A DNA stretch of 55,727 nucleotides, filler included, from Jimgerdemannia flammicorona (taxonomy: Eukaryota): assembly GCA_003990765.1 (NCBI GenBank). It is 2 parts of 2 records of this genome, joined end to end, with 100 filler letters (N's around TTAATTAATTAA, not from the genome) between each part and the next. Parts side by side here need not be neighbours in the genome. Positions count along the whole stretch, not along the records: positions 27,915 to 55,727 come from RBNJ01000599.1; 1 more part is not named here. One strand, 5' to 3'. Every line of letters starts with the position of its first letter. Position 1 is the stretch's first letter. This document shows, piece after piece, positions 6,045-55,727 of this stretch. Both the position numbers and the translations under genes were made by a program. The notes under the pieces were generated by a model that was given only the letters and a program-made list of their open reading frames with translations, had not been told where the DNA came from and ran no database searches.

Positions 6045-6046
6045 CT

Positions 6047-6159: not shown

Positions 6160-6690
6160 AATGCCTCATATAATTGGTAAGAAGAAGAGAAACAGCAAAA
6201 CCCTACTCAGTCAACTGGGGCCATTGAGAGTCTTTTGCAGACTACATTAGCTCAGATTGCTCAACTTTAAGAATGCATAAAAAGAAAGAAAAGCAAGGCC
6301 CCTACTCATACCTCTGCATCTCTACTGATATCAATATACCTGACAACAGTTACCATTAAGCCTCAGAAGTCTGACACTTTTGATGGTCAAAGAGGAAGAC
6401 TGTCTACTGATGCCTGGCTTTTCCGATTGGAGCAATATAGAGAACTGACTAATTTGGAAGAAGCAACACTAGTTCAATTTACTGCTACACTTCTCTGAGA
6501 GAATACTACAATCTGGTGGTGAAACCATATCCAGAATACCAGATTTGCTGACTGAATCAGGACCTGGAATAAATTCTCTGATACCATTCAAGGCCAATTC
6601 AAACCAGTCAACAGTACTAAGGCTATGTGAGACTGTCTGGCAAATGTCAAACAACTCAAGTCTGTATAAGTATACAATGCACAATTCCTA
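6160..6690 (+). pseudogene. gag, 5' part (capsid-like), interrupted by LINE
   Basis: KPQKSDTFDGQRG..DAWLFRLEQY..LVQFTATLL*ENTTIWW..TWNKFSDTIQGQFKP..*DCLANVKQLKSV*VYNAQFL, typical of Ty3 gag. Confidence 0.75.
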
Positions 6691-12759: not shown

Positions 12760-13165
12760 TTCATATGAGTCAACCCCAAGGCCCAGATCCCTCAAGCATA
12801 GTCAGAAGGAGCCATTGGTTTGGACCTTCAAGTAGTATAACAAGTCACTATTCTGGTATATGAAAGAAGGCTCATTCCAACTGGCCTTTCAGTCGAAATC
12901 CCCAAGGAACATTATGCAAGGATTGCACCAAGATCTGGCCTCAGTTTCAAGCACTCATTAGATATTGATACTGGAGTCATTGACCCTGACTTCTGAGGCG
13001 AAATGCAAGTCCTGCTAGTCAACCACAAGAACCAACCATATACCATCAATGAAGGTGACAGAATTGCACAGCTCATTCTGGAGCGAGCCACTCTACTAGT
13101 CATCAAAGAAGTCACCAAGCTGTCTCTAACCAAGTGAGATCAGAAAGGCTTTGGCAGTACTGACA
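12760..13165 (+). pseudogene. dUTPase domain of the retrotransposon
   Basis: All five trimeric dUTPase motifs: AIGLDL, IAPRSG, GVIDPDF*G, GDRIAQLI, K*DQKGFGST. Confidence 0.92.
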
Positions 13166-13199
13166 AAGTTGCAAGCATAGCCAAGAACCAAGCCAATTC

Positions 13200-16100
13200 A
13201 ATGCTCATTTTCAAAGGTCTAGTCAAGGGACAAGAACTAGATGTTCTCATAGACAGTGGAGCTGTTGAGAACTTCATCAACAAGAACCTCATTAACAAGC
13301 TCAAGATTCTCACCAAACTAGCTGGCAAGAATGGTAGAGTTGTTACTGCAGATAGTACTACCTTACTAATCAACTCAATTGCTGCTAAACTCCCTCTCAA
13401 GATCCAGAAGTACTGGGAACATTTAGATTTTGAGATAGCACCACTAAGAGACCATAATCTGATCCTAGGCAAACTCTGGCTTACATGACATAATCCACAG
13501 ATTAATTGGATCAAGAATGAAGTCACCCTGATTCAGGATAGAACCAACATTACCATCAAGCCAGAAAAGACTCAGACAAGAACTCCAATTGCTACCCTTT
13601 TGGCAATTCAGTTCAAGAAGGCCCTCAAGAAAGCTACCTGTGCCTTTGTGGTACTGATCTGACTAAAGAAAGAAGACAAGAAGCTATTAATTAGTGAAAG
13701 TGTCAAGTTACTGCTGAACAAGTACAAGGATGTCTTCCTGGACAAACTACCTGGCCTACCACCTTCAAGAGACCATGATCATGAAATAAAGTTGGTACCT
13801 GATACAGCTATACCTAAGAAGAAAATGTACTACATGTCTCCACTCAAAATTGAAGCAGTCAAGAAGGAACTCAATGAACTCATTGAGCAAGGAGCTATTC
13901 AGCCAAGCAAGTCACCCTTTGGCTCCCCAGTCCTATTTGTTAAGAAAAAGGATAATACTCTGCAAATGTGCATAGACTACCAAGTACTCAACAAGATCAC
14001 AGTCAAGAACCATTATCCACTACCACTCATAGATCAAATCTTTGATACTCTTAAAAATACAAAGTACTTCACCAAGATTGATCTCACCTCTGAGTATCAC
14101 CAAATTTGAATCAAGTCAGAAGACATACCCAAGACTGCCTTCATGATACCTTTTAGACTTTATGAATTTCTAGTCATGGCCTTTGGTCTCACCAATGTAC
14201 CAGCAATCTTTCAAGATCTCATGCAAACTGTCTTTAAGGATCAGCTCTATATCTTTGTACTTGTATATATTGATGACATCCTGATCTTCAGTAGTACTGA
14301 AGAAGAACATCTCAAGCACATTGAACAAGTCCTCAAGATCCTCTGTAAGAACAAGCTCTATATAAAGCTCAAGAAATGTGAATTTTTTAAAGGTCAAGTC
14401 AAATACCTTGGACACATTATATTAGTCAAAGGAATTCAAGTAGACCCAAGGAAAATACAAGCCATTGAACAGTGGCCTGTACCAGCAAACCTCACTGAAC
14501 TTAGGTTCTTCCTTGGTCTGGCTGGATACTACTATCAATTTGTCAAGAACTTCTCTGGCATTACAGAATCTTTGACAAACCTCCTGTGAAAGGAACTCAA
14601 CTCTGATCTCTATGTCCCCTACATCTGAGATGCTTTCTGTCAACAAGCTTTTCAAGAACTCAAGAACTACCTGACCCATGCACCAGTCCTTAGAAATATG
14701 GACCCAAACTTGAAGTTCACAGTTACTATAGATGCATCCAACTTTGCCATTAGTGCAGTCATTTCTCAAGATGATGGTCAAGAACACCAATCTATTACCT
14801 TTGAGTCAAGAAAATTGTCTCCAGCAGAACAAAAGCTGGCTACTCACAAAAAGGAACTCCTGGCAATTATGCATGCCCTCAAGACTTGGTGACACTATCT
14901 AGAAGGAGTTGAGTTTGACATAATCACTGATCACAGGTCCCTTCAGTATATCAATACTCAACCAACCCTTTCTTGCCAACAAGCCAAGTAGAGTCAACTA
15001 CTTTAGACCTTTACCCTAAATATCATCTATAAGCCTAGTAAAACTCTAGTTGTACCAGATACACTTTCAAAGAGACCTGACCTTGCTGCAATTTTACAAG
15101 TTACTGTGGCACCTGAATTCCTCAATCAGATCAAGAAGACATATGAACAAGACTCTCTGGTTCTACAAAGGAATACCAAGGAATTCAAGGAAAAGTATAC
15201 TATCAAGGATAATCTCATATACTATTAAGACAAAGTATATATTCCTACCAACCCTGAACTATAGTATAAGATTCTTCATAAACATCATGACTCCCCACTA
15301 GCTGGTCACCTTGGAACTGAGAAGACTATCAAAAATATCCAACAAGACTACTACTGGTCAAACATGCTCAAGGAAATTAAAGAGTATGTCCAAAGCTATG
15401 ATCTTTACCAAAGAAACAAGTCAAGCAACCAAGCACTCACTGATCTTCTACAACTTTTGCCAATTCTAACCAAGAAGTTCAAACAAGTTACAATGGACTT
15501 TATTGTGCAACTCCCATGAACCAAAACAGGCTATGATACTATTGTTGTATTTGTGGATCATCTCACCAAGATTACAATCGCCAAGCCAACCATAATCAAT
15601 ACCACTGCCCTAGAAATTGCAAGAATCTTCTTCAAGACTGTCTTCCACCATTATGGACTTCCCTGAGTAATTATCAGCAACTACAACCCCAAGTTCACAA
15701 GCCACTTCTAGCAAGCACTCTTCAAGACCCTTGGAACTCAAATTGCTATGTCTACTGCCTTCCACCCTCAAACTAATGGACAAACTGAGCGAATGAACAG
15801 AACACTTGAATAAATGCTCAGAAACTATATGTCTTATAAGCAAGATGATTGGGACCACTATCTGACCTATGCCAAGTTCACCTACAATAACACCACCCAA
15901 TCATCAACTAGCCTTTCTCCATTTCAGCTACTTCACAGTCAAAACCCCAAGACCCCTGCAAGCCTAGTCTCATTTTAGCAATCCAGTCATACATAAGTCT
16001 CCACAGCTCAGAACCTTATTGACAAAATAGATTCCCTTCTCAAGATCGCCACTATGAACCTGCAAAAGGCTCAGCAACATTAAGCTAAGTATGTAGATAA

Positions 16101-23770: not shown

Positions 23771-26712
23771 CTATTGATGGAGTGCTTCTTCAATTTTCGT
23801 CACAACCTCTTGGGCGGCAAGCGGAATTCTCGTACCTGTTATAAGAATAGGTTCGAAGACAAAGGAACGTGTGTAAGATCAAGCCTGCGCTTCCTTGTTG
23901 GCCAGCTCCATGAATTAACAAAAGGCCTCGCTCACCCGGTCCAAACACCGACGTCACACCAGCTTCTTTCAGGAAGGAGTAATCCTGGGCTGGAATCACA
24001 CCACCGCAGATGACGAGCTTGTCGCCAGCGCCAAGTTTACGAAGCTCGTTAATCAGCGCCGGTACTAGTGTCTTATGCCCAGCGGCTTGCGACGAGACAC
24101 CGACAACGTGAACGTCAGCGTCGATGGCCTGGCGGGCGACTTCTTCAGGAGTCTGAACATGATTTTTAGGTAGAGTTGAGACAAAATGGTAACGGTTACA
24201 TGTTTCACAAAAGTCTTGCAAATTGATGGAAGAATAGTGCAACAGGACGCACCTGGAACAACGGCCCAACGTCGACATCAAAACCCAGATCCGCAAAGCC
24301 GGAAGCGATGACCTTTGCGCCGCGGTCATGACCGTCTTGACCCATCTTCGCAACAAGAAGACGAGGTCGACGACCTTGATTTTTTGTGAATTGCTCGACG
24401 AGGTCGAGTGTGCGCCTGACTTCGTCGCGGTCGCCATATTCGGACCTGTATGCACCCGAAACAACACGCGAAGTTGGTTGATGACGACCCCAGATCTTTG
24501 TAAGCAAGAGGATGATATAAGATCGAGAAAGCAATCCAAAATTAGATAGATCGAGATACCGCAACGAATTGCGTTGAGTAATAATGAAATCCAATTCACA
24601 ATTACCTTCTCTAGCGAGTACGAAATCTCACCAACAGTGCACCGCGCTTTAGCAGCCTATTCATGCACGCCAAATGATTACGGAAACGTGCGAGACCGAG
24701 CAAAGTAAGTTCACGTAACAGAATAACATAACATCGTAATGGTAAAGGTGCTTACCTCAATGGAAAGGGCCAATAGATTGCCGTTGCCAGTTTTTGCGCT
24801 CTCAGTAAGCGCGTTGAGACATTCCTGAGCCTAACTCAAATATAAGATGGTGGTGATATCAGGAATTGCCGCATGTGTGAGATATCCATTCGTGCGGAAA
24901 TGGGGTATATTTTCAAGGCGAAACGCCAAAAAGAAAGAGGAAGGGAATAGTAAACATCGGGGGAGAAACAGATAAAGAACACAAACCTTAGCCTCATCAC
25001 GGTTCGCCTTCACCCCTGTGATCCTCTTAATCTATAGATATATAACATTGGATAAATAGACATAAAAAGCAAGCACTTGAAAATGACAATCTAAGTGAGG
25101 ATAACGTCATAAGCAGTTCAATCTTACTTGGGAGTCCCGCACGGCCGTGTTATCGATGGCAAGGACTTCAACGTTTTCTTCCTTCTCCAGGCGGTATTTG
25201 TTCACACCAACAATGGTTTCTACGGTGTCGTTTTCAAAAATGGGCATCACTCGTCAATGGGTGATTCACACCATCCCTAGTGGAGCCATGGCCGCTGTAT
25301 CCACCCTCAAAAGTATATATATATATATATATCTGCCCACAAAGCATTAGTCGTCCTAAGTGCAATTTACTCACGAAAAATACATACCCTGTTCGGAATC
25401 AATCCTAGCCTGACGCTTCGCCGCGGACTCCTCGATCTTCAACTTGGGCATCCCCGTTGCGACTGCCTTAGCCATTCCGCCCATCTGCTCGATTTCGTCG
25501 ATCAGTTCCTTGGCAGCATCGTGGATCTCGGCCGTCAGCGACTCCATCATGTAAGAACCCCCCCATGGATCGGCAACCTACGGAACAGAGAAAAGGGAAA
25601 TGGAATCAGGGGATTCGCTGGCGACTTCTTTCACCTCCGCTCCGCTTGGGTCGTGCAATAATTATTAATGATGTCTCCTTCTCTATCACTTTAGAACATG
25701 GCAGCGGATCAGTGACAAGAGCTCGGAGCATCCAGCGGACATTGCCACTCTACCTTGGGAATCCCTGCCTCCTCTTGTAGAATCAGTTGGGTATTCCTCG
25801 CAATTCTGGCCGAAGATTCAGTCGGTAGGCCAATGGCTTCATCGAACGAGTTAGTATGCAATGACTGGGTGCCGCCAAGAGTGGCCGCCATGGCCTCAAC
25901 TGTGGTGCGAATGATGTTGTTGTACGGCTGCTGTTCTGTGAGTGACCAACCAGAGGTCTGACAATGCGTGCGTAGAAGAAGCGATTTCTGAGACTTTGCT
26001 TGGAAATTTTCTTTGATGAGAGTTGCCCAAAGCTTGCGCGCAGCTCGCATTTTTGCAATTTCCTGATGAGTTGGAGGGAAAAATTGATCAGATATTGTCA
26101 ACACGGCATCGGTTGGGTCTTTTTAAACCAAAACGTGAGGGTTACGTCACGATCATTCATTCAATGGAACAATCGAGACATACCATGTAGAAGTTCATGC
26201 CAATAGCCCAGAAGAACGACAAACGTGGTGCAAATTCGTCGACTGGCATGCCTGCCTTTATTCCTATAAGGATGTATGGAGTAACGAAGTGAGTACCGCT
26301 CACACCATACATCGGTGAATGTCATAACTATTTACTCTCCGTCCGAAAGTCTCATAAAAGAGTAAACATGACATTGATATGTCTCGCGGCCGCTATGTAC
26401 ACACCTGTTCGTACATACTCAAGCCCATCTGCAATGGTAAATGCCAGCTCGAGCACGGCATCCGCGCCAGCCTCTTGCATGTGGTAACCTGAAATGGAGA
26501 TCGAGTTGTATTTGGGCATGTTCTACACAAGTAAGTGGGATGAAATTAGAGCTACGCCAACGATCGTCTTCAGCGTTGAGGGAGTTACATAAACAATTGT
26601 CTAGGCTTTATGCCACATGAGCAAAAAATTTCCACTCACTTTCGACGTGAAGGAGAAGATATCTCCAATGAGACGCATGCTGGGCTCCGGAGGGTAGATG
26701 AACGTGTTTCGA

Positions 26713-26744
<32 letters not shown>

Positions 26745-27780
26745 TGTGCCCGCAAGCTCCTTCAAGTCGGCGCCTTGCTCGAGACCGGCAACAATATACA
26801 TGGCGAGGATGGGCAGCACGGCGCCATTCATGGTCATGGAAACAGACATCTTGTTCAGCGGGATGCCTTCGAATAGGATCTTCATGTCCTCGACGGTATC
26901 GATAGCTACGCCGGCCATGCCCACATCGCCCACCACGCGTGGGTGGTCCGAATCGTAGCTGCGCCACATAATTGCATTGGCAATAACGACGAGTTAAGTC
27001 GGCAGGATCCTTATATATAACTCAAACCCCCCACGCTCGGAATCCGTAAAAAACAAGGACGAATAATGTTCTTACCCACGATGTGTGGCCAAATCGAACG
27101 CAACCGAGAGACCCTGCTGTCCGGCCGCCAAATTCCTCCGATAGAAATGATTGGATTCCTCGACAGTACTGAACCCAGCGTACTAGAGTCACGAACGTGG
27201 TTTGCGTTGAATGAGCGGGAACATACCACCAACGTCAACCTCGAATCACTAAGCCAAGAAAATGAATTTGGGTAACGCACCTGACGAATTGTCCATGGCC
27301 GAGCGGTGTACATGGAGGCGTATGGTCCACGCGTAAACGGGAACTTGCCCGGTATCTCGTCGTCAATTTCCCCAACGTCGGCCTTCGTATACACGGGCTT
27401 AATGTCGAGGCCCTATAATACACAGCAAAGCGGCACGTATATGATGGTTCAGAACACGCATAGTGATCGGCGACCAAGCAAGGGATACGGTACACGTACC
27501 TCGGCGGTATGCCACGTCAAGACTTTCACAGGGTCTTTGCCTTTCAGCTCCTTTGAGGCCATAGCGGCCCATTCCGGATGAAGTGACACCTTGGGGCCCT
27601 TGGCTGTTGCAAAAGCCTGGCAAGGTCCCGGGGATTCGTGACAAAGTGCTGTTAGAAAGGTGTTGTATCGGGACTGCGTCGGGTTGAACAGGTTGGGCTG
27701 TAACATACCCTTCCGTACACGCTCGCATATCTGTTGAGAGTGCGAAGCGAATGTTTCTTCACAGCAGTAAGGTATTGCAT
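23771..27780 (-). CDS. MUT: Methylmalonyl-CoA mutase, adenosylcobalamin-dependent, mitochondrial; 16 exons, apparently intact
   Basis: Spliced protein [30 protein letters not shown].. with [90 protein letters not shown] and the B12-binding [10 protein letters not shown]. It ends GTRIP..EEALHQ* (stop 23771-23773). Fifteen GT-AG introns traced. Confidence 0.97.
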
Positions 27781-27814: not shown

Positions 27815-27914
27815 NNNNNNNNNNNNNNNNNNNNNNNNNNNNNNNNNNNNNNNNNNNNTTAATTAATTAANNNNNNNNNNNNNNNNNNNNNNNNNNNNNN
27901 NNNNNNNNNNNNNN
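27815..27914. other. Artificial scaffold linker: 44 N + TTAATTAATTAA + 44 N
   Basis: Six-frame-stop spacer centred in a 100-bp N run. Confidence 0.97.
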
Positions 27915-41939: not shown

Positions 41940-44900
41940 TTTTTTTTTATTTTTATTTTTTTATTTTTTATTTTTTTATGTCACTCAGACTTCTATTTAT
42001 TACTACTAAATCTATAAATAATAATATACATGTACCCACAACCCTCAGCCATTGCCCCTTGGATCCCCCTCCCCACTCTCCAACCCTCTCCACTGAAGGA
42101 CAACTCAACCACCTACTATCTGAACCCTCTCTCTACTCTTCTTACAAATACAATTCACTAGAGTCTGATGGCCCCACCCACCTGATCCCCACCCTCTCCA
42201 CCAATCATTCAAAATGTCAAGTATTAACTATTCTCAATATGCTACTCTAGCTCCAACTGCAACCCACTGGCCCTTCTCAAAGACATGAAGCCAATAACTG
42301 GCCAGCTCTACTCAAATTGCCAGGGCCCATCCCAAGGTCAACCATTCATCCCCAACCCCACCCATTAACCTATGCCGGAGGTCCCCCCATCTCCCTCCTT
42401 CCTCCGCCATCAGGGGCTGCAATCCCAGTCTACTAGTAATACTGTGCCAAAACTCCCCCAAAACTTCACACTCCCTTAGCCAATGTTCAAGCATTTGTAC
42501 CACTCCCCCCTTCTGGTGAATGTCTATGCATTCCTTACACTCAAATATGCTGTCTGCTATCAAGTGCCCTGACTGATAGTTCAGCATCACATTCCGCCTT
42601 AGAAACCTCCACCATACCACCCAGAACTTAGGGGGAAGCCACTGCATCACCTGCTTGCTCCAAAGCCAAACATCATTCCAGTCCCACTCCTCACCAATCC
42701 CCACCCTTTGTCATGCTTCTGGCCACACATCCCTCCTGAGCCCCTGCATATATTCCACTCCATTGCCAAGCAAAAAATCCTCCACCAATATATCTCCCAG
42801 CAGTAGCTAGTCCCATCTCCACATCTATGGTCCCCAGTCCTTCTCTCTCTCATCACTCCTCTACTGAAGTCCAATTCTCCTTATACTATCTACCACTCTC
42901 TACCAGAAGCCTTTGTAATATATCCTCCTGCTCCTATCTATGGCCACCATTATAAGCAGATCACCAGTTGCTCCACAAGGGGAGTACTGGACTTTCCACA
43001 CCCTCTGTATGAGTGGCACCCACTCCTGGCCCCTTAACTCACTTGCTCTCTTCAGCCTCCATGCTCTCAGACAATATAGGTACTTAGCAAAGTCTACTAA
43101 GCCCAGCCCACCTCTGTCAACAGGTAGAGTCAGAACCTCCCAGCCTATCTGACTATGCCACCCAACCCAAATTCATGATCTTGCTATCATTAGAAGTCAC
43201 CTGACCACCCACACTAGAAAGTCCAGATAATACTCCACATATCATAGCTTTGGTAGCCAATACACATTCAGCACCATCACCCTTCCTGCCAAGGATATAT
43301 ACCAACTGCCCCACCTCAGAAGAACATTCCCCCATACTAGTAGCTGCTGTTTCCACTATGTATGGGGCATAAGGGACCCATACACTGAAAAGTAGATCTC
43401 CAAGTACTGGACTCATTCTCCTACCAGAACCACTGTTCCAATCACATTGCTGCCAACTATTCTGCCACCTAGTATCAGAGTTTCACATTTGTGTCAGTTG
43501 AGTTTAGCACCTGAGCCCCTCTCATACCATTCCACAGTCCTTCATAATTCCTCCACATCCTCTAATGAACCCAGTCTAACCACCATATCATCTGCAAAAG
43601 CCCCCACCTTCCAGTTAATTCCCAAAATATCCATACCCCCAATATGATGCTAGATCCTATCCAATAGAGGCTCCAAGGAAAGGGTATATAGGATGGGTGA
43701 CAAAGGATCTCCTTGCAGCACTCCATGATCTAGCAGAAAGGTCACACTCCTGTACTCATTCACCACTAATGCTGCTTGACTGTTTTCCAATAGACTGATC
43801 AATGACCTCAGAAACTCTGGGGGTACTTCCACATATTTCAGCACTCTCTCAAGCCAAACTCTCCTCACTCTGTCATACACCTTCTCCTGATTCAGAAACA
43901 CTAACTGGCCATCAATCCCAGCTACCTGAGCCCCTTCAATCACTTTATGGACCCAGGCAGTTTTATCTCAAATCAACCAACCTCTAACAAATCTCCTCTG
44001 CTTCACTCCTAGTACCTGCTGAGCAATTCTCTGCAGTCTAGTCACTAAGATCTTTATCACCAGCTTGTGGTCAATGTCAAGGAGCATGATTGGTCACCAG
44101 TTCTTCCAATTTTCTCTTCTCCTCTTATCCTTTTAGAGCAAGGAGACCAGCCCTAGATGCTGGCCCCCAATCCAAGTTCCAGATTGAAGTATCTCATCAC
44201 ACAACATCATCATTTCTTCCAGAACCACTGCCACTCCAGCCATCTTCTTCTAAAAATCCCAGAGTAGCCCATCCTCTCCTGGAGCAGTCCCCTTACTTGT
44301 CAAAGCCAAGACCTTGCACACCTCCTCCCCCCTCACCAGATCACCCAGTATTTCTAGGCCCAGAGCTGGGTCTGGATGCTAATTTTCCAACTGCCACTCA
44401 ATGATCCGGGCATCCTCACCCCCATTGTCATTACTCCATAAGTTCTCTCAGTAAGTCTTCCACAATCCCAAAATCACAGGAGTCTCCACCACTATCTCCC
44501 CATCCTCATCTAGAATACCATCCCACTGTTGTTTAGTTCTCTATACTTAGAGCAAGTATGATAGAAATCTAGTGGGCCTCTCCCCCTCCTCCAACCCCTG
44601 CCACCACAACCTTGCCACTATCCCCTTCAGCTTAACCTCTTCCTCCATTCATAGCACTTTCATAAGCTCATCAACCTTCTTTGAATCCACAGAATCTGCC
44701 AGTTGGCCACCTCCCAATCCTCTAGTGACCCAACCCACCTCCCCAGGAGTGCTGCCAATTGCTGTGATGCCCATTGCACTTGCTATCACTGCTGAGCACT
44801 CCTTCCTTTCTCTGCCTCCCTTCAGTATCTCTGAGTACTTGATTTTAGCCTCTGCCAGTAATCCCCAATCCCCAGTCCCTGTTCTTACCACCACCAATCT

Positions 44901-46250
44901 TCACAATAGCTTCTACCTCCCAGTCTATTCATAGGGAATCATTCTCAATAAAGAAGAATTCAGTCACCAATGTCCAGGCTCATCCCCACTTCCCCCAAAT
45001 CTCCTGCTCTCTATTAGACCCCAGTGATCTGACCATGGGCACCAAACCACCTCCAGTGTGTCCCAGACATTCACTCTCCAGTACTCTGCCATCAACACCC
45101 AGTCAATCCTGGAGTCCAGCCCTGCCACCCAGTGAGTATAAATTTGTTGATCCTCTCAAAACTATCACTCTGAGTCAACCAAGGAACTCAACCTCTCCAT
45201 CTCCATCCAATTGTCCAACCTGCTACTTCTGCCCCTCATTCCTCTCCCACCATCAGTCCTGTCCACCACATTATTATATACCATGTTAAAGTCACCCCCC
45301 AGGCAGTCAATCCCTGCCTCCCTCATAACACCAGCCTCTCTCAAGCCTCGGATCCAATCTATACATTCCCCCCTCTCTGCTGGGCAATAATATGACCCAA
45401 TAGTCAAAGAGTTCCACTCAGGCCTCTTCTATGTATACTCCCTACATCAATCTACTCCCCCAATGTCCAATATCCCCAATGTCCTCCATCCCCTTTCTAA
45501 TTAGAATGCCCACCCATCCAGTCTACATAGCTGCTCTACCCCATTCTCTAGTCCAATCCTGTAAGTCCACATCTACCTCATACTGCACATCCTGCAGTAA
45601 GAAAAGATCTACATCCAGTCTCTTTAACCAAACAAATATATTCCTCTACTATACCACTCCCCTCAACCCATTTATATTCAAAGAGAAGATTCTAGTTGTA
45701 CTGTTCATAATGAATAATGTTTGATAATGAAAGCCCATCCTAGTATTCCATACTCATCTCATCTCCAGCCAGATCCAAGTGCTGCTCTGCTTCCAAATCA
45801 TCTTCCCTTACAGCCTGAGTATCCAGTGCTTCCAAGATTTCCTGGCACTCCACCCCATCCACCATCTCTATTTCTGCCTGATAGTCTGTGCACACCACTC
45901 TTCACTTCTCCAATCCCTCAAACCCCACAAGTATGCTACCCAGTCATTTGCAATTACTCAAAGTTTCTTCTCCCTCTGATCATCCACTTGTTATTCAACT
46001 GATTCCAAGAGCACCACCAGGATCTCATTTCTAACCTTCCTTGGCCATGAAGAATTTCCTCCCAATGCCTATCACCCATAACCCAGAAGTCCTCCCCCCC
46101 CAGCTCCTCAGCTGCCACCCCCTCCAGAGTCTTCCACAGCCACTTCTCCTCATCCACTGCCTCTGTAACACCCTGGGTGATCCCTTCTGCCCCCCACTCT
46201 GTTTATTGCTAGTACAGCCCCAGATGTACTTATGTAGTATCTCTGTTATG
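41940..46250 (-). mobile_element. Second LINE of the same family as 6690-12400; 5'-truncated, with poly(A) tail
   Basis: T-rich run at 41940-41980 (poly(A) on the minus strand). ORF2 start MNSTTRIFSLNINGL (~45708), GGDFN, SDHW, GVLQGDPLSPILY, AFADD. Confidence 0.9.
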
Positions 46251-46520
46251 CCTTCTATTTCTCGCATTCCCCACCAATCCCGATACCCCTCTTTTCACAT
46301 GCTCTGCGAGCCACACCTTCTCCCGGGACTACCTTGTCCATCATCTTTGATCTTTGCTTCTGCAGATTGGTCTTAATCCAATTCTCTTCACTGGGCATAG
46401 CTTTCATATTGGGGCTACGTCTGATGCCACTGCAGCAGGTCTTTCAGACTATGAAATCCAAATGCTTGGGTGGTGGTCTAGTGCGGCATTTCAAGGGTAC
46501 ACTCACATGCCCATATCCCG
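46250..46520 (+). pseudogene. Tyrosine recombinase C-terminus (DIRS/Ngaro or Crypton type)
   Basis: FTGHSFHIGATSDATAAGLSDYEIQMLGWWSSAAFQGY matches GHSFRIGAAT..IxxLGRWxSxAxxxY; the catalytic Arg appears lost through a CpG transition. Confidence 0.85.
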
Positions 46521-46559
46521 CATCTGTCATCTCCACACTTCTCTCTCTCAGCCTTCAAC

Positions 46560-46880
46560 ATTCTCTGCGGGCTATCCTAACCACTTGTCCATGACATCGG
46601 TTGGTCATTGAGGACTTCTCCTCCTCAGTTTTTCTTGTTGGCCTGCATCAACAGCCTTCTGTTTACACACTGCATACGTCCACCATAACTTCAGTTTCGC
46701 ATTGCTCACTTTTCTCTCTCTGGCAACTATATTCTCTGCTGGCCGTCCTAACCACTTGTCCACGACATCGGTTAGTCGTTGAGGTCTTCTCTTCGGTCTT
46801 TCTTATTATTGGCCCGTGTTAATAGCCTTTTTGGTCACACGCCGCGCGCGTCCACCACACTTTCAGTTTCGCGTTGCGTG
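46560..46880 (+). repeat. Two ~172-bp direct repeats downstream of the recombinase
   Basis: TCCTAACCACTTGTCCAxGACATCGGTT..TTCAGTTTCGCxTTGC occurs twice (~46575 and ~46746). Confidence 0.8.
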
Positions 46881-49009
46881 TGTTACTACCTTCTTCGCTT
46901 CCTTCCTTCTCCCGATAACCTATTTTGCATCTTCGCCCCTCTTTTGGGTGCCCTCTTTCTCCTCCTCTTCTCCTTACACCATGAGGCATAACTACTATTT
47001 GGGCCGGTTTTCTACTGTGTGTTTCACCCAAATACATATTTTTACATTTTGTGTGCTTTTCGGGTCCTCTTGCGTGTTCCAGGTTGTTTGGGTTCATCGG
47101 TCATCATATCTAGACATTAACGGGTCCTCTTGCGCGGTCTGGTCTGTTTTTCGTTTGGACATTATAGCTAGACATTGACCACCTGCGAAATTTACATATT
47201 CTGCAATTCAGTTATGCGATGTTAAATAGGGGGAATGCCCGATCAAATGACATCGGAAATTGTTTTCGGTGCTGATGGATCACTTTATAACCAACCTAAA
47301 AATAAAAATAAAAATAAAAAAACAATTTTGTAAAATGATGCTCCGACGATAAATACCATAGCATAAAAGGCCATCTGGTAAGCACACGGCTTTGGATATC
47401 CGGTCAATCACATGCACCGAATAGTCTGTCGTTGTTTCTCCATCCTTCCAACTCTATGTTTCCTCCGGAGGTTCGCTTGAGAAGAGCTAATGATGGGGGA
47501 GTGGAGTATGCCCAATACATAATATGACCATATATTCCTTTCCGCTATGTCTATCCGCTGAGTTATGTGGAGTGATGGATGACTCCGCATTAATGGCAGT
47601 ATGAATCTTACCAAGACATCTGATGGGTCACTGTACGTGCATATAGAGCGCAAGTGATGGTACTGATGCTCAGATGATACCTCCGACTAATGTAATCGTT
47701 CTTACGCAATTTCATAAATCGGTTTATTCAAAATCAAACCCTCAGTAGATACATGAATCCATATATTTAACAGTAAAAGAATATGAAAAGAATAGGGTTT
47801 CTAGACAAAAATATTAACATAAACAATGACTATTGGCGGAACGATACTTGTAAGCTAGAAATTTCAATTTGAACCACCGCTTCAAAATTATTGCAGTTGA
47901 TACCTCTTCCCAACAAAATATGCCTCATACACATATTGTACGGTGTAATCGTGGCATTACTTCCCACCGCCATCACCTACTCCTCCCGCATGGCCACAAC
48001 CATGCCAATATCAAATCCATTCCTCTCAGTAGATCTACTCGAGGTACATATCGCGGAGCACCAATGTGGTCCATGACAGCGGCGGCTTCATATTCAGGCA
48101 GCACGACGGGCAATGGTCGCTTGACATTTTCTGATCCACACACGGCACTGAATGACCCAATAATTGAAAGACACATGTATCTTCACGTCTTCGATATTCA
48201 ACTTCCCAAATCTTCTGACGAAATTGGTTAGGGTTCGATATTTGTCGCAATTTTTATTTTATTTTTATTTTTTTTTTTTTTTGAAAGGGGGGGGGGGGCA
48301 TGTGTAACTAATATCGCCCTTTACGTTGCAGTGCGGCGTCGCGTGGAGTTGCAATGGCAGTGGATAGGATCTGTAAATCCTTTGTGCTATTCATCTGTCT
48401 TTTGCACCTTTGCACCATCTTAAATGTATAAATTTTTGCTTGTAGCGCTCATGCACTGGCATGCATTATGCTTGGTTTATTCTCACTGCAACCATGTACG
48501 GAAACACTATACGAGAATAAAGGGAAATAAAAGCCCCTTTTATCGAGCAGTAATGAGACGAAGAGAAGATTTGCAATGTCGTGGCACGAACTCAAGCGAA
48601 ATCGCTCAACTTCCTCCTTGTCCAGTGAATACTGACACAATCTATCCTTTTTTTCATGTGATAACAGAAATCAATGACCAGAACCCATAACTCCTCCCAC
48701 TTTCCAACATATGTGATTAAAATGCTCCCCAAATCCCAGACATCCCGTCTTTCCCATAACCATCCTCCACACCCACCACAATCCGTTGGATGTGCACTCA
48801 GACCGCCTGACAGACATGCTAACGTCTTGCCAAGCTGAGGGTTCTTATTCGCGACAAGATGAAGTACTGCGATGAGATGAACGTGACGAGTTAATAATAC
48901 ACATCAACAGAATGTTCATACACAAAAATTCGAACCACTCAAATTCTCGAATGCACAAGCGCATTCGGCAGTGAACTGAAAGTAGCACGATATCTCTTGA
49001 CAGCCGAAT

Positions 49010-49674
49010 CAGTCCTGCGACGTCAAGGGCCAGAGGAAGATGCCCAAGCTCCTCAACGAGGTCATGCGCAGCAGAGTCTACACTAGAAGTGGTAGCGACT
49101 TCCGAGCGGAACAGAATCGTCAGCGAGTCGTCGGTTCTCATTTTCATCTCGTCAATGTTGATAACTAGCTTCACGAAGTTGGGGATGCAATTGCGGGTTG
49201 TCATGATGGTGTCTCCGTTGCCAATTTTGGGCAAATGATTGGGCTTTAGTGAGGAGTCGTTGTCCGCGATATCGAACATCAAAAGCCATCGCTTCGTTGC
49301 CGTTTGGAGCCATTGAATTACGATCTTGACGAGTTTTTCAGTGTCCTTGAAAGAGATATTGAGCAGCCTGGCTACGCCGACGAAACTTGAATGTATTGTC
49401 AAATCGAAATCCGAGATCAGCCGAGTAACTGCTCTTGTATCGGTAGCAGTACTCAAACGCGATCTGGGTCTTGCCAATGCCGCCGAGGCCGGTGAGAGCG
49501 ATGCGCCTACAGCTGCGAATATCCTTATTCAGCAAGTTAAGTTCTCGATTTTCAAAACCATCTTGACGTCCAACGAATCGGCTATTTCTTACCTCCGGCA
49601 CATGGACCACGGTGCCCGGTGGTGGCGACAAAGGAATTATGTAGTTGATTGCTAGGAAAATAAAAAAAATGAAT

Positions 49675-49710
<36 letters not shown>

Positions 49711-49800
49711 ATAAATCGGTTTCTATACAGAATTGTACTTACAGAAGTCTGCGTTATCACCAGTCTGTACAGGCCCGTTAAAAATGTTGCTATGCTTCAT
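49010..49800 (-). pseudogene. NLR-like NB-ARC protein with N-terminal RHIM-like exon; frameshifted and truncated
   Basis: RNSRFVGR, P-loop GLGGIGKTQIA, Walker B WLLMFDIAD, IMTTRN and LGHLPLALDVAG. Frameshift near 49400. No TPR/ANK/WD repeats recognised downstream. Confidence 0.85.
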
Positions 49801-51061
49801 TTGGAATGTCTTAGCATAGTTTACATGTGCGGCGTCAGGATGGGACACGATTTCCGGTGATGGTAACGAACTTTTTGGTTGCTATGAAACACGAATAAAA
49901 TAAAAAACATCAAATAAATGCATTGAGTTATTGAGAAGGCATTTCTATATAGTGCTGTACTTATAAAAGTTGGTATTATCACCGGTCCGCACAGGCCCGT
50001 TGAACATGTTCCCATTCTCCATTTGGATTGTCCCAGCATAGTTTGTCACCCCGTACGGCATCAGGAGGTGATGTCGAGCCCGAATTCATGTTAAGGCTTC
50101 GTGTTCAGAATTTAAATGTGATGGACATTGCTTCTGTCCCTCTTATGTATTGAAATCCGACTTGCTGACCTGCGGCATGAAGTCTGAAAACCCAAGGGCA
50201 TTATTTTCTGGAATCCTAGTCCCGCTTGTGCGTCACGCAGCCATAATCGGCATATTATAATAAGGTGGTGTTATGTTCTGCAGATCTATCGGAATTTTCC
50301 CATTGTAGCCACATTGTCGGCATGCTGCGGTTCAGGTGGAACATCGAATATTCCGAATATAGTTACAGGCGACGTTGTCACTTCACCTGAGCCACCCAAA
50401 AGAGGATAATGAGGGAGGACGGGTTGGCAGCGTGGGAACATACTGGACTTACGGAAGCATGTACCACTTGCCTATAATTGCTATATACATCATTGTTGTG
50501 AACCGGATTGACTTAATTCTCAATCACATAAAAAAAGATGCGTGTCATGCCCCGCCAATCGACAAGTATGTATCCCATAATTAAAATGTAGCGTAGAAAG
50601 TCGAAATATAGACAACACATTGCAATTGATGAAGTTTGTCGCGAGCGTACTAGATAGGGAAGATTATAGAGAGGTTGGTGCGAACCGAGCTGCTCGTTGT
50701 TCGTTGCTCGTTGCGAGTGAAGAGAATGAAAGAAGGAATAATATAAGCGGAAAAGGGTAACGGAATTTGACCCCTCACACACGCGAACACGGTTAAATGT
50801 TACAATGTTACCCCCGTTCACATATATCCTGGGGTGGCTCACGAATTAAACGAGTCGCAACCCTCTACCCCTTGAACATGCAAGAAATTCTTTGCCACCA
50901 ACGCTGTTCCACAGCTCCTATATTTAGCATCTGGGACGGGAATGCTTACGGCCGCTCGATTCAGGAGAATTTGAGAATGAAATTGTAGAAAACCAACGCT
51001 TTCGCATAGTTCAGCTCCAAGCAAAAAGCAAAACTCCTTTCATACCCACCGATACACAGAA

Positions 51062-51290
51062 ATGTTGGCACGCTCTATTCTCATGCTTGTGGTCCTGGCC
51101 GCAAACAAATCAATGCGTGGTTCATCGATGGTTCCACAGACAAATACATTCTTACATCGCGCTACTACAGCGATACCAAATCCCTCCCGAAAAGGGTTAA
51201 ACATTACAAAGTACCGAACTCGAAATCCACTCGAATTCGAACTCGACTTCCCCTCTAACACTCATAGAATAGAAATTAGAGCATAGTTAT
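51062..51290 (+). pseudogene. Deleted paralogue of the small secreted protein gene
   Basis: Starts MLARSILMLVVLAA, then frameshifts and lacks the central exon/intron segment. Confidence 0.75.
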
Positions 51291-52290
51291 GAGCAACTTA
51301 AACTCGTCAATGCTTGCGACTGACTTTATATGAAAGCAGATTCATATATATATGTGTGTAGTATCATTATTTAACCATTTTTTCAATATAAATATATAGT
51401 TGACGAAAATACCAAGCATTGAAAATGTGCGCTTGCAATCCGCATTTCATTTAAGAGGTGGGACTTAGATGTTTATCATCAAACGTGCGTCTATCTGCTG
51501 GTTTGTGTTAGGACCGTGTCACTGAGACGTTCAAAAATGTTATGCGAGGAAATAGAAATATAAGGAAAGAGGAAATAAATTTTAAAAATATAGCTAAGAG
51601 AGTCGACAAGCGAGGGAAAAGAGAAAATAGAAATATAAGGAAAGAGGAAATAAACTTTAAAAAATAGAGAAGGGAGTCGACAAGCGAGGGAAAAGAAATT
51701 CAGAAGTAGAATTTCAGTTACCTTAGTGACTAATTTCTGGTAGAACACGATTACCCACAAGCCACTAACCCGATCGTCACACCAAATTTCGACGTGCCCA
51801 CGCCACTATCGACAAGTATGTATCCGATAATTAAATGCAGCGCAGCAAGGCGGAATATGCAATTGATGAAGTCCGTCGCAGGCGCACCGGATAGGGAAGA
51901 TTAAAGGGAGGTTGAGGGGTGCGAACAGAGCTGCTCGTTGCCCGTTGCGAGCGAAGAGAATAAAGGAATTGATCTGCGGAAAAGGTTACACGGGATTTGG
52001 CTGATCCGCAGCAAGCACGCGAACACAGTTCAATGTTACAATTTTACACCCGTTCCCATATCCTAGGGGTGGCCCTTGAACTCACTGAGTCGCAACCCTC
52101 TACCCCTTGAACACGCCGAATTATCGAAGAAATTTTTTGCGACCAACGCTGTTCCACAGCTCCCACTGATTCACTAAATTTAGCGTCTGGGGCGGCAACG
52201 CTTACGGCCGCTCGAATTGTATAAAATTCAACGCTTGCACATAGTTCAGCTTCAAGCAAAAACTCCTCTGATACCCACCGATACACAGAA

Positions 52291-52811
52291 ATGTTGGTAC
52301 GCTCTATTCTCATGCTTGTGGTCCTAGCCGCAATGGCTACGATGGTGACGGCCAAACAAATCAATGTGTGGTTCATCGACAATTTCACAAACAAATATGT
52401 CTCCGTCATTGCGAAATACAAAGTCTGCTACTACCCCATCAGTAAGTTTTGAGCTAGCATTGATTCGAGCATTGTATAACCCTTCACGCTACCCGACAAT
52501 ACTGACATTCCCCTTTCCTTCAACTCCTAGCCGAGGTCGTCACCACCGAGATCCAAACCAACAACAAGAACGCCAACATTGTTTTCTACTCCCAGTCTGG
52601 CTGCCGAAAGGCGGAATACTACGTACACGGAAAGGATATCAAAATCACCAAGAGCTTTAGCTACAGATCGTGGCGCTACTACAGCGATAGCAAATCCCTC
52701 CCGAAAGGGATTAAGCATTACAAAGCACCGAACTCGGAAATCCACTCGAATTCGAATTCGACTTCCCCTCTGACACTCGTAGAATCGAAATTAGAGCGTA
52801 GTTATGAATAA
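52291..52811 (+). CDS. Small secreted protein, 143 aa, two exons (52291-52441, 52531-52811)
   Basis: TATAAAA ~70 bp upstream. Signal peptide MLVRSILMLVVLAAMATMVTA. Intron GTAAGT..CTGAC..CTAG restores an open frame: KQINVWFIDNFTNKYVSVIAKYKVCYYPITEVV..IVFYSQSGCRK..SYRSWRYY..RSYE*. Confidence 0.8.
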
Positions 52812-53809
52812 CTAGATGAAAGCGGATTGCAGTTCTTTCCATATATATGTGTGTGTAGTATCATTATTTAACTGCTTTTAAATATAAATATATATTTGAC
52901 GAAAATACCAAGTGTTGAAAATGTGCGCTTGTTTCATTTACGAGGTGACTTTGATGCTTATCATCGAACGTCCATTCCGGTGTCTATCTGCTGATTTATG
53001 TTAAGATCGTGTCACCGAGACGTTTAAAAATGTTATGAGAGGAAATTGAAATATTTAAGGAAAGAGGAAAGAAACTTTAAGAATAGGAGGGAGAGGGATG
53101 GAATTTAGGTTGGTGTGTGACGATCAGATCCGTGTCACGGTCCGCTACATCTATTGTATTTGAAGGCAATGAATGAAAGTAGAAAGTTCCAGCCGCCAAA
53201 CTTTAATATGCAATCTCTTGTTGACCGAAGGAAGACGGAATGCAGTGGAAATGCGCGAGAGGATTTTAAGAAGCAGCGCATATGTGGTATACCTTGACCG
53301 TCGATTAAATTGTGCCCAACTAATAAATCACGCTTCTAAGGCTTGGCTTCGTCCCGTTCCGGATGGCTGGTTAGGAAGTGCTGCCTCGAAACTTTCTTCT
53401 AAACTTGTTTTTGCCGAATTCTTATTCCCAAGCCGTTTCGAAAAATCTTGAGAGACTGCCGGCTGGCTCAACCTTACGACGTGGTTAATGAGGTACCAAT
53501 GGGGCTGGTGATGGTGAAAAAGTGTTGGGAGCAGAGCACACTGACACCAGGGCGTCAAAAAACCAAGAACAAAGCCGCCAGATGAGCAAGGAGCCGGGGG
53601 AGAAGCAAATGCCAAGGTGAATGAATACATAGCAGCAGGCTTAACAGCCAAAAATTTAGCCATATTTCTACATGTCCTTTTATTTAATTTACCCTAGGGC
53701 GTGTTTGTCGTTACAACGTGCTCAGTTATTCTGGCGAATTTAGTTTATCATTTATCAGTGTTCTTGGTTGATATACGACGCGAAAGAATGTGATGAGTCG
53801 TACTAACGT

Positions 53810-55619
53810 CTAAGCAGTGCATTGCGTCGACCGAGGGCTCCCGCTGTTGCTGCCCTCGTTCGTCAGGAACACGTTAGCTGGCAAACCGACTACGCCCGTG
53901 TTACGTTGAAGGATGTCGCGGAACGAGGTTTTCTTGATCGATGAGATCTCCTCAGAGAAGAAGTAGTATTTGTTCTCGTAGAAGAATCGGTCACCGTCAC
54001 CTAAATTAAAGATGGAGATCCGTTATGCACATGTATATCCATGTTTTCTTGTTATATACGAATTGATTGACTTACGCTTTCGGGTGAGTTCATTGGCAAT
54101 GATTCCAACTGTGGTGGGGCCGAGATACGCTCCTGCAGATGCAAGACGTAATCGCGGTGTTAAGTAATCGCATTGTCACGCATGTCAAACTACGAATAAC
54201 AACTGGCTCACCCACCATTCAGATCTTCGGCTATCATCCCCACTATCGCATCAACCTTGTTGACCTTGCCGTACAAGTTCTTAAGCTGAGCTGCGACGGT
54301 TTTGTTGGAGGTCAGGATGGCCCAGCAGGCGTCACAATCCACGGTGGCGGTCAAGTCGCAGGCATGGTTGTTGTAAATACTCCCTTGCGAATGATAGTGG
54401 GTACGGAGGGTGTTGTAGTTGGGCAGGCCGTTGTTCCTGCCTCGGAAGATGTCAATGGAAAATAGGTCGACATTTCCGGGGATGTTGCGGAGCGTGTTGG
54501 GGAACAAGGTGTCGAACCTTGCCGTCCTCTGCCTGACTAGGGAGCTGATGAGATTGTCCAAGCCGTCGCCGTGACGTCCTGCCATCAGAGCGAGGATGCG
54601 CGCAGGTGTGTAGTCCAAACCGGGGTTGCCAGGGACGCCGAGGACGAAGATCTGACCCTGGAAGAACAAGCGGGTCGGGTTGGCCTGCAAAGCGGTCGGG
54701 TTATCGTACATGGAGAGCAACGAATCGCCGTTCGGGCTGCAGCCGTCGTACATCTCCCAGTCCCGGGCGACGGTGTGTCCGTAGCGGAAAGCGCCCGTAG
54801 CGAAGGCGGTGGATGTCTCGGTGACAACGCTACTGTCGTAACCCTTGTACGGCGGGAGCGGCCGACGGAGGATGACAGGGAGAAATTCCTCGTACACGAC
54901 CTTCTGGAACTCGGCGATTGTGTAGCGCCTCGCCAATTGGAAGAGCTGCTCGTCTGTGGCGCTCGGGAAGAGAGTTCGGTAGCGCGTAGCCTGGTAGTTG
55001 TGTTCACGGACCCACACCGTATGCATGATGGTCAGCGGGATATCCTGGGAAGCCCTCATATCGCCCGAGACCATTAGGTCTTGAGGGTTTATCGCAAAGC
55101 CAATGTCGCCATTGACAACTGAGTCGGTGTCTGCCAGGCTGATGAGCAAGTTCTTGATCGTGGTTGTGAAGTTGGCGTATACACCACCGTCAGCAGTCCA
55201 GTCTTTCAGCCGAAGCAACCCATCCTTGTGGGTGCGCAGGGCGTCGGATTGGGTTGTCTGGGAACAAGGAAAACATGGAAAATATGCAATGTCAGAAACA
55301 AGCTCTACCAGATGTGCACGGTCATTTTTTATCGTGAAGTAAATTGTGCGAAATAAACTGACTCACATTTTCCGAATAGATGGTGGAAAGATCCACCCAT
55401 GCATTGTTATCGTTGATGACCTCGAACTGACCATTCACGACATCACCCAAGCTCTTCCTGCTCCTCTGAAAACAGTCGTTGAAGGGGTTGAAGGGGTTGG
55501 AGTTGTTGGTGCCCGGGGGAGTGCAGCGGAACACTGGGTCGTCGGTTACATTGGCAATAGCTACGACGTCGGAGAGGGAGGGGAGTTTGTTGTTCTCCAA
55601 GTCGTGGTTGAGAAATTGT
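53810..55619 (-). CDS. Animal-type heme peroxidase (peroxidase-cyclooxygenase superfamily); 5' part outside the window; four visible exons
   Basis: (G)QFLNHD distal His, INDNNAWVDLSTIYS, GDMR, HTVWVREHN, DEQLFQLAR, AFRYGH proximal His, DIFRGRNNGLPNYN, VDAIVGMIAE, GDRFFYEN. Stop at 53810-53812. Confidence 0.92.
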
Positions 55620-55727
55620 CTTTTACGGTTTCATTGTGAGACAACCGTTTTAGCCATGCGGAGGAGTTAGTTGGAGCGCGAGACGTATTTTCCACGCCCC
55701 CGCCCCCCTCAAAAAAAAAAGAAAAAA

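Follow-up and report, generated by a model that had tools for sequence, protein, structure and literature searches.

Amyloid motifs tied to NOD-like receptors (NLRs) have so far been known from Ascomycota, Basidiomycota and multicellular bacteria, and are represented in animals by RHIM, the RIP homotypic interaction motif. Published surveys locate such motifs in short NLR N-termini like the one described below (PMC9815663); in the motif table of that survey, all groups named as major taxa belong to Ascomycota or Basidiomycota. The fungal pseudo-palindromic (PP) motif reads N-x-G-x-Q-x-G-x-N (PMC9815663), the RHIM core tetrad is (V/I)-Q-(V/I/L/C)-G (PMC9444067), and a G-Φ-Q-Φ-G core is common to RHIM, PP and the bacterial amyloid signalling sequence (BASS) type BASS3 (bioRxiv 10.1101/2020.01.06.895854, 10.1101/2020.07.22.215483), with PP and BASS3 both found at the N-terminus of NB-ARC/TPR-type NLRs (bioRxiv 10.1101/2020.07.22.215483, 10.1101/2020.01.06.895854). 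Bacterial amyloid signalling is defined by the layout of an effector gene paired with an NLR gene (bioRxiv 10.1101/2020.01.06.895854); BASS motifs occur in these Bell/NLR gene pairs, BASS3 being the RHIM-like one. In the HET-s-related amyloid motif (HRAM) of HET-s/NWD2, the NLR carries one repeat and the effector two (bioRxiv 10.1101/2020.01.06.895854). Here we describe a candidate for this class in the fungus Jimgerdemannia flammicorona (assembly GCA_003990765.1). The whole stretch of DNA that was analysed, 55,727 bp in length and called the window below, contains the 5′ part of an NB-ARC NLR gene that has decayed. The 5′ coding exon of this gene ends with a tag of ~15 residues rich in G/N/Q/D, with the consensus [IM]-F-[NVK]-G-[PS]-V-[QR]-T-G-D-[NH]-[AT]-[DN]-F. 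By the sequence comparisons, this peptide is an N-terminal element that is conserved and under selection in a clade of Endogonales NLRs. A role in the intact relatives as an amyloid (beta-arch) signalling motif on the NLR side would be the best-fitting mechanism, and our confidence in it is evenly divided.

The peptide, its exon and its constraint

The peptide is encoded at the very end of the 5′ coding exon, and its relation to the NB-ARC sequence is given by the following features, in which P0003 is the intact relative that ranked first in the homology search described further below.

49743..49800, (-) strand, motif copy 1: from the ATG, 19 codons (MKHSNIFNGPVQTGDNADF) and the initial base of a Ser codon that the intron splits; together the final 58 nt of the 5′ coding exon
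49652..49742, (-) strand, intron 1: 91 nt long and in phase 1, reading GTAAGT...CTAG and containing a (TA)n microsatellite
49423..49651, (-) strand, exon 2, first part: the linker (INYIIPLSPPPG..RFVGRQD), then Walker A (GLGGIGKTQIAFEYCYRYKSSY), as far as a frameshift; tblastn frame -1, P0003 residues 15-83
49013..49422, (-) strand, remaining NB-ARC sequence, in a different frame: contains Walker B (WLLMFDIADN), IMTTRN and GHLPLALDVAG; frame -2, P0003 residues 88-232

The start codon of copy 1 lies at 49800-49798 (-) and the single leftover exon base is the T at 49743, exon 2 resuming with its first base at 49651 (-). Intron 1, bounded by GTAAGTAC on the donor side and TTTCCTAG on the acceptor side, is in phase 1 because the split codon T|CA across the junction gives Ser. 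Joining the exons in script gives the frame ...DF-S-INYIIPLSPPPG...GLGGIGKTQIAFEY with zero stops ahead of Walker A, and the spliced reading continues SINYIIPLSPPPG...RFVGRQD...GLGGIGKTQIAFEY, the last element being Walker A itself. Two NCBI models of J. flammicorona, P0002 (182 residues) and P0001 (178 residues), which belong to two locus-tag series and two strains, both span ...NADF|SINYIIP... at the same exon junction, as gene models and not RNA evidence, and both contain the residues MKHSNIFNGPVQTGDNADF of copy 1; the window exons joined in the manner of P0002 reproduce that protein letter for letter. The nucleotide sequence and both gene models agree with the sequence-only reading made before this analysis, in which the motif had a short 5′ exon to itself, joined to NB-ARC by a phase-1 splice. 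Its attribution of the DNA to an early-diverging fungus is also confirmed by a 52-residue open frame around copy 1 (49723-49881), which is 100% identical to a model of J. flammicorona (Endogonales, Mucoromycota) over 81% of the frame. The gene for methylmalonyl-CoA mutase with its B12-binding domain, also found in the window, presumably fits a non-dikaryan fungus.

A second copy of the peptide lies upstream, within a tandem duplication composed of the following parts.

49966..50022, (-) strand, motif copy 2: MENGNMFNGPVRTGDNTNF; in frame inside the other strain's model P0001
49871..49964, (-) strand, duplicated intron copy: donor ATAAGT (49964-49959), acceptor CATAG (AG at 49883-49882)
49801..49870, (-) strand, linker between the motif copies: NSLPSPEIVSHPDAAHVNYAKTFQ; open in frame, from the duplicated exon 2 start and the duplicated leader
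50023..50089, (-) strand, upstream leader: its ATG (50089) is used by both gene models
49640..50083, (-) strand, two 222-bp tandem units: each takes in a portion of exon 1, the intron and the beginning of exon 2

The spacing from copy start to copy start is exactly 222 bp. A gapless core of 103 nt (49720-49822 versus 49942-50044) is 79% identical, and in a MAFFT alignment of the units over ~260 nt, 163 columns are identical, 47 show a transition, 30 a transversion and 44 a gap, with 68% identity across the ungapped columns; the motif copies are old duplicates, with 21-32% DNA divergence. The units align from ~45 nt 5′ of each ATG to ~55 nt beyond each acceptor, so the duplicated unit is not an exon alone. 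The "duplicated exon" proposed earlier is better read as an internal tandem duplication, in frame, that took in a stretch of exon 1, the intron and the first part of exon 2. Copy 2 is likewise present as claimed, at 50022-49966, the earlier position of ~49964-50020 being 2 nt off, and the mutated donor reported for it is found as well: copy 2 is followed by T|ATAAGTAC, with AT at the homologous donor (ATAAGT, 49964-49959), and the homologous acceptor is kept (TTTCATAG, CATAG, with AG at 49883-49882).

An alternative in-frame pair of splice sites is available in the duplicated intron (GTACAG at 49960 and AAAAG at 49872-49871, 90 nt apart from end to end) and is implied by P0001, which runs from an upstream ATG (MNSG...) through copy 2, splices at ...NTNFY|NSLPSPEIV... 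and then continues with HPDAAHVNYAKTFQ into copy 1. Model P0002 instead uses a donor GTGATA at 49982, with the acceptor AAAAG (49872-49871) as for P0001. The window allows the same join as P0001 from M50022 (GTACAG 49960 / AAAAG 49872-49871), giving an open frame with two tags 44 residues apart. The leader ATG at 50089 is out of frame with copy 2 in the window and in frame in the other strain's model, and P0002, the window's own model, has copy 2 out of frame as a result of a small leader indel relative to the other strain. The duplication could yield a two-repeat N-terminus.

The strict pattern N.F.G.V[QR].G.N has 2 matches in all six frames of the window, namely copies 1 and 2, and the relaxed PP-like pattern N...Q.G.N has a single match there, which is copy 1. 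Compared over their 19 codons, the two copies differ by 6.5 synonymous changes per 10.8 sites and by 7.5 non-synonymous changes per 46.2 sites (ratio 0.27). Restricted to the motif (N5-F19), the comparison counts 6 synonymous changes against 4 non-synonymous ones (ratio 0.18; Fisher p = 0.003), and the four codons ahead of the motif have no synonymous bias. Mostly synonymous differences between copies of this age argue that both were read as protein for much of their history, and the pattern shows the signature of purifying selection on the peptide.

The sequence-only reading had made its case depend on the motif occurring in other NLRs, which it does, in a close version in P0157 and in a diverged version in P0155 and P0173-P0175. 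P0157, one of 22 proteins at E <= 1e-5 among 852 candidates in a search with the paralogue P0008, is a JGI/IMG protein of 228 residues from a 1055-bp contig and carries MFVGSVQTGDHTDF. Its sequence runs ...AGGPMFVGSVQTGDHTDF, then CKCYIIISFLFAYSLNISVHYNKKMSSTFPATK, NYIIPSIPSAF...FVGRDD...GLGGIGKTQIALEY...WLLVFDNADD, and its NB-ARC is unbroken, with no frameshift, up to the contig end. It shares with the window 9/14 motif residues (with either copy), 25/51 residues of the linker and 18/47 residues of NB-ARC after Walker A. Between the tag and NYIIP it has a 33-residue stretch beginning C-K-C, the expected read-through product of T|GTAAGTGC (a GTAAGT donor), and the composition of this stretch is like that of a translated AT-rich intron, where an intron of 90 nt would keep the frame. 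We infer that P0157 has an equivalent intron at the same position, which is read through in the model.

The J. flammicorona NLR models P0155 and P0173-P0175 have an N/G/T-rich start ending ...GLNNGP[VI]TMFGGTPNLNFGAVHNNYSPLS, which aligns with ...IFNGPVQTGDNADFSINYIIPLS of the motif and linker; their pattern is ..NNGP[VI]TMFGGTPNLNF..NNYSPLS.., of which NGP[VI]...NF...NY..PLS is kept. Another N-terminal type, FEREITADNGDTVNAGNQWEI, is found in the J. flammicorona NLR models P0008, P0154, P0156 and P0176, and P0008 and P0154 differ by a segment retained directly after FEREITADNGDTVNAGNQWEI, which points to an intron at the equivalent place. Encoding the N-terminal peptide on a separate 5′ exon seems to be a trait of this NLR clade. 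The idea of a shufflable exon goes beyond these data, in which a conserved intron follows an N-terminal peptide within one NLR clade. Because the tag sits on a mini-exon, tags are easily lost from gene models, and several paralogue models seem to lack the 5′ exon or to run on into the intron.

A metagenome scan with an alignment as query matched at least 606 stretches, at least 563 of them encoding a relative, and the best 80 gave 79 loci, all of which are generic NB-ARC genes at most 44% identical; the contig of P0157 was not among them. A pattern scan of these 79 loci met F[NVK]G[PS][VI] 5 times, never on the strand of the NB-ARC match, and gave 0 matches to the other four patterns. Two side observations concern the N-termini of further NLR models. 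In P0018, P0023, P0012 and P0035 the models seem to begin inside or just after the 5′ intron (..ILFLLPSACGDINVESS.. versus MDVNVESS..), and their true first exons may be absent from the gene calls. In P0141, an NB-ARC/ANK NLR of 974 residues from Calcarisporiella thermophila (Mucoromycota), residues 15-58 are G/N/S-rich and apparently repeated internally (..IHADNQGVILAGNTRGNVSF..SGNVSIGAGAF..), and this N-terminus is another candidate amyloid-type tag.

That the resemblance arose by chance, in a region that is decaying and rich in repeats, with a functionless peptide and a similarity between copies owed to recent duplication, would suit the state of the locus: the gene is dead and truncated, the strains differ by the leader indel, and the NLR fragment is placed between retroelement remains (RVT_1 at 43653-43967; repeats at 45016-45714 matching 9655-10349) and a ~1.5-kb tandem repeat at 51.0-53.1 kb. 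This explanation is nevertheless most improbable in view of copies that are as old as their divergence of 21-32% and yet differ mainly at synonymous motif sites, of the better retention in P0157 of the motif (9/14) than of NB-ARC after Walker A (18/47), and of the paralogues that keep NGP[VI]...NF...NY..PLS.

The NLR copy had been suspected of being pseudogenised and is, as judged from its reading frames, a dead fragment and a pseudogene in both strains. The hallmarks of a fungal NB-ARC NLR (GLGGIGKT, WLLMFDIADN, GHLPLALDVAG) are found at the locus. An exhaustive HMMER search with the 227-residue frame at 48845-49528 identified 951 proteins at E <= 1e-3 and 20 at E <= 1e-10, the top match being P0003 (1e-25; 932 residues, NB-ARC + DUF7779 + TPR), and the closely related intact proteins P0003, P0011 and P0035 are NB-ARC + DUF7779 + TPR or ANK proteins. 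Another homologue search, for longer proteins with the same frame, gave 4647 candidates and 0 at E <= 1e-3, and the Pfam NB-ARC profile stays below threshold on the broken pieces of the locus. When twelve relatives were compared with the window by tblastn, P0003 residues 15-83 fell on 49625-49422 and residues 88-232 on 49420-49013, with a frameshift between 49422 and 49420 and ~4 residues lost. Downstream of 49013 there is no likeness to the remaining ~700 residues of P0003 (the match ends at residue 232/932), DUF7779 and the TPR/ANK repeats are missing from the locus, whose reading frame is not intact, and a relaxed search of the whole window found no further NLR piece at E < 0.1. A missed intron was considered as the cause of the NB-ARC break and rejected, as the frames overlap within 3 nt and just ~4 residues are missing, which leaves no room for one. 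P0001 and P0002 end at an identical out-of-frame stop (...QYLFQGH), so the break predates the split of the strains, and the other strain's model omits part of the RFVGRQD region, which suggests added decay there.

Comparison with PP, RHIM, HRAM and cyanobacterial tags

The PP motif of HELLP/PNT1 in Podospora anserina and of CgHELLP/CgPNT1/CgSBP in Chaetomium globosum is likewise a short N/G/Q-rich tag at the N-terminus of an NB-ARC/TPR-type NLR. In the J. flammicorona peptide, the N, Q, G and N of PP recur with their spacing (N...Q.G.N), with 4 of the 5 fixed positions present in copy 1 (N8, Q12, G14, N16) and 3 of 5 in copy 2, the remaining G being at Q-3 and not at Q-2; by analogy, the expected mode of action would be templating of an effector tail. 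It differs from PP in having P at Q-2, G at Q-3 and T instead of a hydrophobic residue after Q, in having no adjacent effector gene and sitting on its own 5′ exon, and in its occurrence in Mucoromycota, as against the Ascomycota and Basidiomycota groups that are the only major taxa in the motif table (PMC9815663).

The likeness to the RHIM of RIPK1, RIPK3, ZBP1 and TRIF consists of a V-Q-x-G core followed by D-N and, by analogy, of a presumed homotypic amyloid interaction in a cell-death pathway. The fungal tag differs in having T at the third tetrad position, where RHIM has V/I/L/C, and no G directly before the tetrad, in being carried by an NLR and not by a kinase, and in giving no sequence-search match. 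The tetrad is V-Q-T-G in copy 1 and in P0157 (3 of 4 positions) and V-R-T-G in copy 2 (2 of 4). With the HRAM of HET-s/NWD2 the locus has in common a repeated short amyloid-type motif and a flexible linker, here in the two-copy reading with its 44-residue period; the doubling would be on the NLR side, unlike in HRAM, and the tag is without sequence likeness to HRAM.

A more distant comparison is offered by filamentous cyanobacteria. P0124, which has relatives in these organisms and an N-terminus ..GTNYQIQTGRDNTNFMGG.., was noticed by eye among 150 listed NB-ARC matches, and it shares with the NLR of a cyanobacterial locus, L128 (G001:C61), a start of the form ..N[YF]Q[IT]QTG[RK]DNTNF... L128 contains two genes.

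1488-1928, (-) strand, 146-residue protein: C-terminus ..GTVYQTTTGDDNTNFFGGTHNH
32-1468, (-) strand, NB-ARC protein: starts MNQHNSGGENFQTQTGKDNTNFFGGVHHH (..GGENFQTQTGKDNTNFFGGVHHH); directly downstream of the gene for the 146-residue protein

The tail of the 146-residue protein, the putative effector, and the head of the NLR give a local alignment score of 95, and the N-terminus of the former weakly resembles that of a small protein adjoining another cyanobacterial NLR (BLASTP E 3e-4). The arrangement of the two genes is the effector/NLR one by which bacterial amyloid signalling is defined (bioRxiv 10.1101/2020.01.06.895854). The tag of L128 and P0124 shares with the fungal tag the run ..Q-T-G-(x)-D-N-[TA]-[ND]-F at ~10-20 residues from the start, and in both groups of NLRs a linker of ~25 residues and an entry into NB-ARC of the form ..RN..F[VT]GR follow. 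In the cyanobacterium the tag is paired with the C-terminus encoded by the neighbouring gene, whereas in the fungus no partner was found. In a composition-preserving shuffle test the observed score was reached in 28/5000 (copy 2 versus P0124) to 2098/5000 shuffles (copy 1 versus the effector tail), and the best value, 0.006, fails correction because P0124 had been picked by eye from 150 matches. A pattern scan of 48 cyanobacterial and other loci for QTG/DN-type tags found none adjoining an NLR except one IQIG-type in L048. As a separate observation, a small protein of L024 (9321-9842, (+) strand) ends ..GGDLKIGDITQKQ and the NB-ARC/TPR protein next to it (9887-12127, (+) strand) has ..VAGNLTIGDVTQTV near its start; L024 is read as a second cyanobacterial pair with a different shared tag.

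A proposed amyloid role and its alternatives

In the amyloid reading, the peptide marks the N-termini of a single subgroup among the NB-ARC-TPR/ANK receptors of Endogonales type. A conserved phase-1 intron lies between it and the NB-ARC exon, and at this locus the 222-bp in-frame tandem duplication doubled it. Ligand-driven oligomerisation of NB-ARC would gather the N-terminal tags, the gathered tags would nucleate a cross-beta fold, and this fold would serve as template for the same tag at the C-terminal end of an executioner protein that another gene encodes. The class in question would, by analogy, most likely be the one that includes PP in fungi, RHIM in metazoans and BASS in bacteria. The peptide is probably a new variety of NLR-side amyloid-signalling motif, carried here by a pseudogene, in a lineage for which the literature searched reports none; amyloid formation, the existence of a partner and a cell-death output are what we infer from it. 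This reading is supported by the position of the peptide, directly 5′ of NB-ARC in an NLR without other N-terminal domain, by the 4/5 PP and 3/4 tetrad positions of copy 1, by the constraint on the motif, by its occurrence in P0157 and, diverged, in the paralogues, and by the cyanobacterial analogue. The motif seems to resemble the NLR amyloid-motif class as such; its membership of RHIM or PP is not established, and the earlier labels "RHIM-like" and "strikingly RIPK3-like" could not be upheld on a tetrad with 3/4 and 2/4 positions, a G-Φ-Q-Φ-G core that is not matched and the lack of a Pfam or PDB match.

A number of results weigh against the amyloid reading. In place of the G-Φ-Q-Φ-G core, copy 1 has G-P-V-Q-T-G, copy 2 G-P-V-R-T-G and P0157 G-S-V-Q-T-G, that is, one extra residue after the first G and a T in the second hydrophobic position. 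A proline lies inside the putative core of the motif, and the central Q is replaced by R in copy 2 and by T in the diverged paralogue type. If the upstream ATG of the gene models is real, the motif lies ~30-60 residues into the protein and not at positions 5-9. With hmmscan against Pfam-A at E <= 10, no amyloid-motif family was found in P0001, P0002, P0157, P0124, P0175, P0154 and P0176, nor was any found in the exon-1 open frames against Pfam at E <= 1, searches in which the HMMER filters drop most weak matches and for which there was no positive control for short models. The 20-residue exon peptide had 0 matches at E <= 10 among 177,635 PDB sequences (phmmer), and a PDB sequence search with P0002 returned 6 P-loop matches and no RHIM chain. 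The likeness between the fungal and cyanobacterial tags appears nominal, a weak lead that is compatible with the amyloid view and not proof of homology, and nothing about activity can be learned from a dead copy.

The partner searches weigh on the same side. No third tag copy is present in any of the six frames of the window. Among its 141 open frames of at least 85 residues, 139 were scanned against Pfam (the two NLR frames were scanned separately) and 15 had matches, to retroelement, methylmalonyl-CoA mutase/B12, Gaa1 and haem peroxidase families; no HeLo, HELL, SesA/B, patatin or PNP_UDP domain was found in these 15. A word search of 5.8 billion proteins with the 52-residue frame yielded 2 candidates, both of them the locus's own models, and its sensitivity is low, because P0157 was missed. 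An effector carrying the same motif, as predicted by the sequence-only reading, was therefore not found in the window or, by this low-sensitivity search, in predicted proteomes. At the level of structure, an ESM Atlas search with P0002 residues 58-95 gave no usable match, the structural rows all having TM < 0.4, and a predicted complex of four copies of P0002 residues 56-92 scored 0.02 against a mark of 0.32, which speaks neither for nor against the reading.

Part of this evidence also bears on whether the tag is a RHIM/PP/BASS3 member by descent, directly comparable to the RHIM of RIPK1/RIPK3. Such a relationship would explain V-Q-x-G followed by D-N, the 4/5 PP positions and a context that is the same as for PP and BASS3, at the N-terminus of NB-ARC/TPR-type NLRs. 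We consider it very unlikely, given the unmatched G-Φ-Q-Φ-G core, a tetrad with 3/4 (copy 1, P0157) or 2/4 positions (copy 2), no Pfam-A amyloid-motif family at E <= 10 and 0 matches of the exon peptide in the 177,635 PDB sequences at E <= 10; the motifs are, in addition, too short to tell homology from convergence.

The peptide might instead be a conserved element of the NLR clade with a non-amyloid role, for instance as a degron or as a short segment for oligomerisation, regulation or targeting, and without a separate templated effector. Conservation and purifying selection show a constraint and leave its kind unspecified, and the lack of a partner in the window and in the protein word search, the unmatched G-Φ-Q-Φ-G core and the lack of a Pfam or PDB match would all be expected of such an element, as would the differing sister N-termini (FEREITADNGDTVNAGNQWEI in P0008, P0154 and P0156), which maybe represent a variable leader. 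The composition and length of the peptide, however, match those of known NLR-side amyloid motifs (PMC9815663), 4/5 PP positions are matched, and in a cyanobacterium a similar tag is common to the tail of an effector and the head of an NLR, so that we rate a non-amyloid element as somewhat unlikely.

A wider form of the amyloid reading would combine early-fungal NLR amyloid signalling, a QTG-DN-type tag on a conserved Endogonales 5′ mini-exon that is related to the one shared in filamentous cyanobacteria by a small, helical killer-type protein and the adjoining NLR, and a HET-s-like two-repeat receptor N-terminus; taken jointly, these propositions are quite unlikely. If true, a two-repeat, HET-s-like prion-forming N-terminus on the receptor side would be a layout undescribed for NLRs. 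Apart from this wider form, an amyloid-type tag that is conserved and under selection in a family of NB-ARC receptors of Endogonales would close a gap separating the bacterial systems from the dikaryan ones, and a concrete peptide would be at hand for fibril-formation and cross-seeding tests. Mucoromycotina are described as poor in NLRs (PMC9119436, PMC7928374) and Mucoromycota proteomes contain as few as one NLR per species (PMC12258605). The literature searched contained no report of an NLR-linked amyloid motif in Mucoromycota. A partial string search of the PMC9815663 supplements (motif strings, Jimgerdemannia and six accession numbers) gave no relevant match in the parts covered, where alignment gaps break strings, and the motif may already be present unnoticed in that data set.

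Surroundings of the NLR fragment

Just upstream of the NLR fragment, a direct repeat of ~1.2-1.5 kb occupies 51030-53054 (families D12-D15, 89-95% identical). Two stretches of the window, 6000-12000 and 42000-47000, have a strong excess of C over G on the (+) strand (GC skew -0.34 to -0.49) and contain long Ser/Pro-rich open frames without a Pfam match. They share the repeats 9655-10349 and 45016-45714 at 71-73% identity, and reverse-transcriptase remnants lie beside them at 8133-8498 and 43653-43967; the two stretches are probably of one retroelement family. A decayed Ty3/gypsy-type pol gene (RVP_2, RVT_1, RNase H) is split over several frames at 13138-14889, (+) strand.

The methylmalonyl-CoA mutase gene has several exons at 23793-27412, (-) strand, with matches to MM_CoA_mutase and the B12-binding domain, and two 44-N gaps are placed just upstream of it (27815-27858 and 27871-27914). 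The nearest intact-looking neighbour of the NLR fragment is an animal-type haem peroxidase gene (An_peroxidase, E 1e-52) at 54211-55630, (-) strand.

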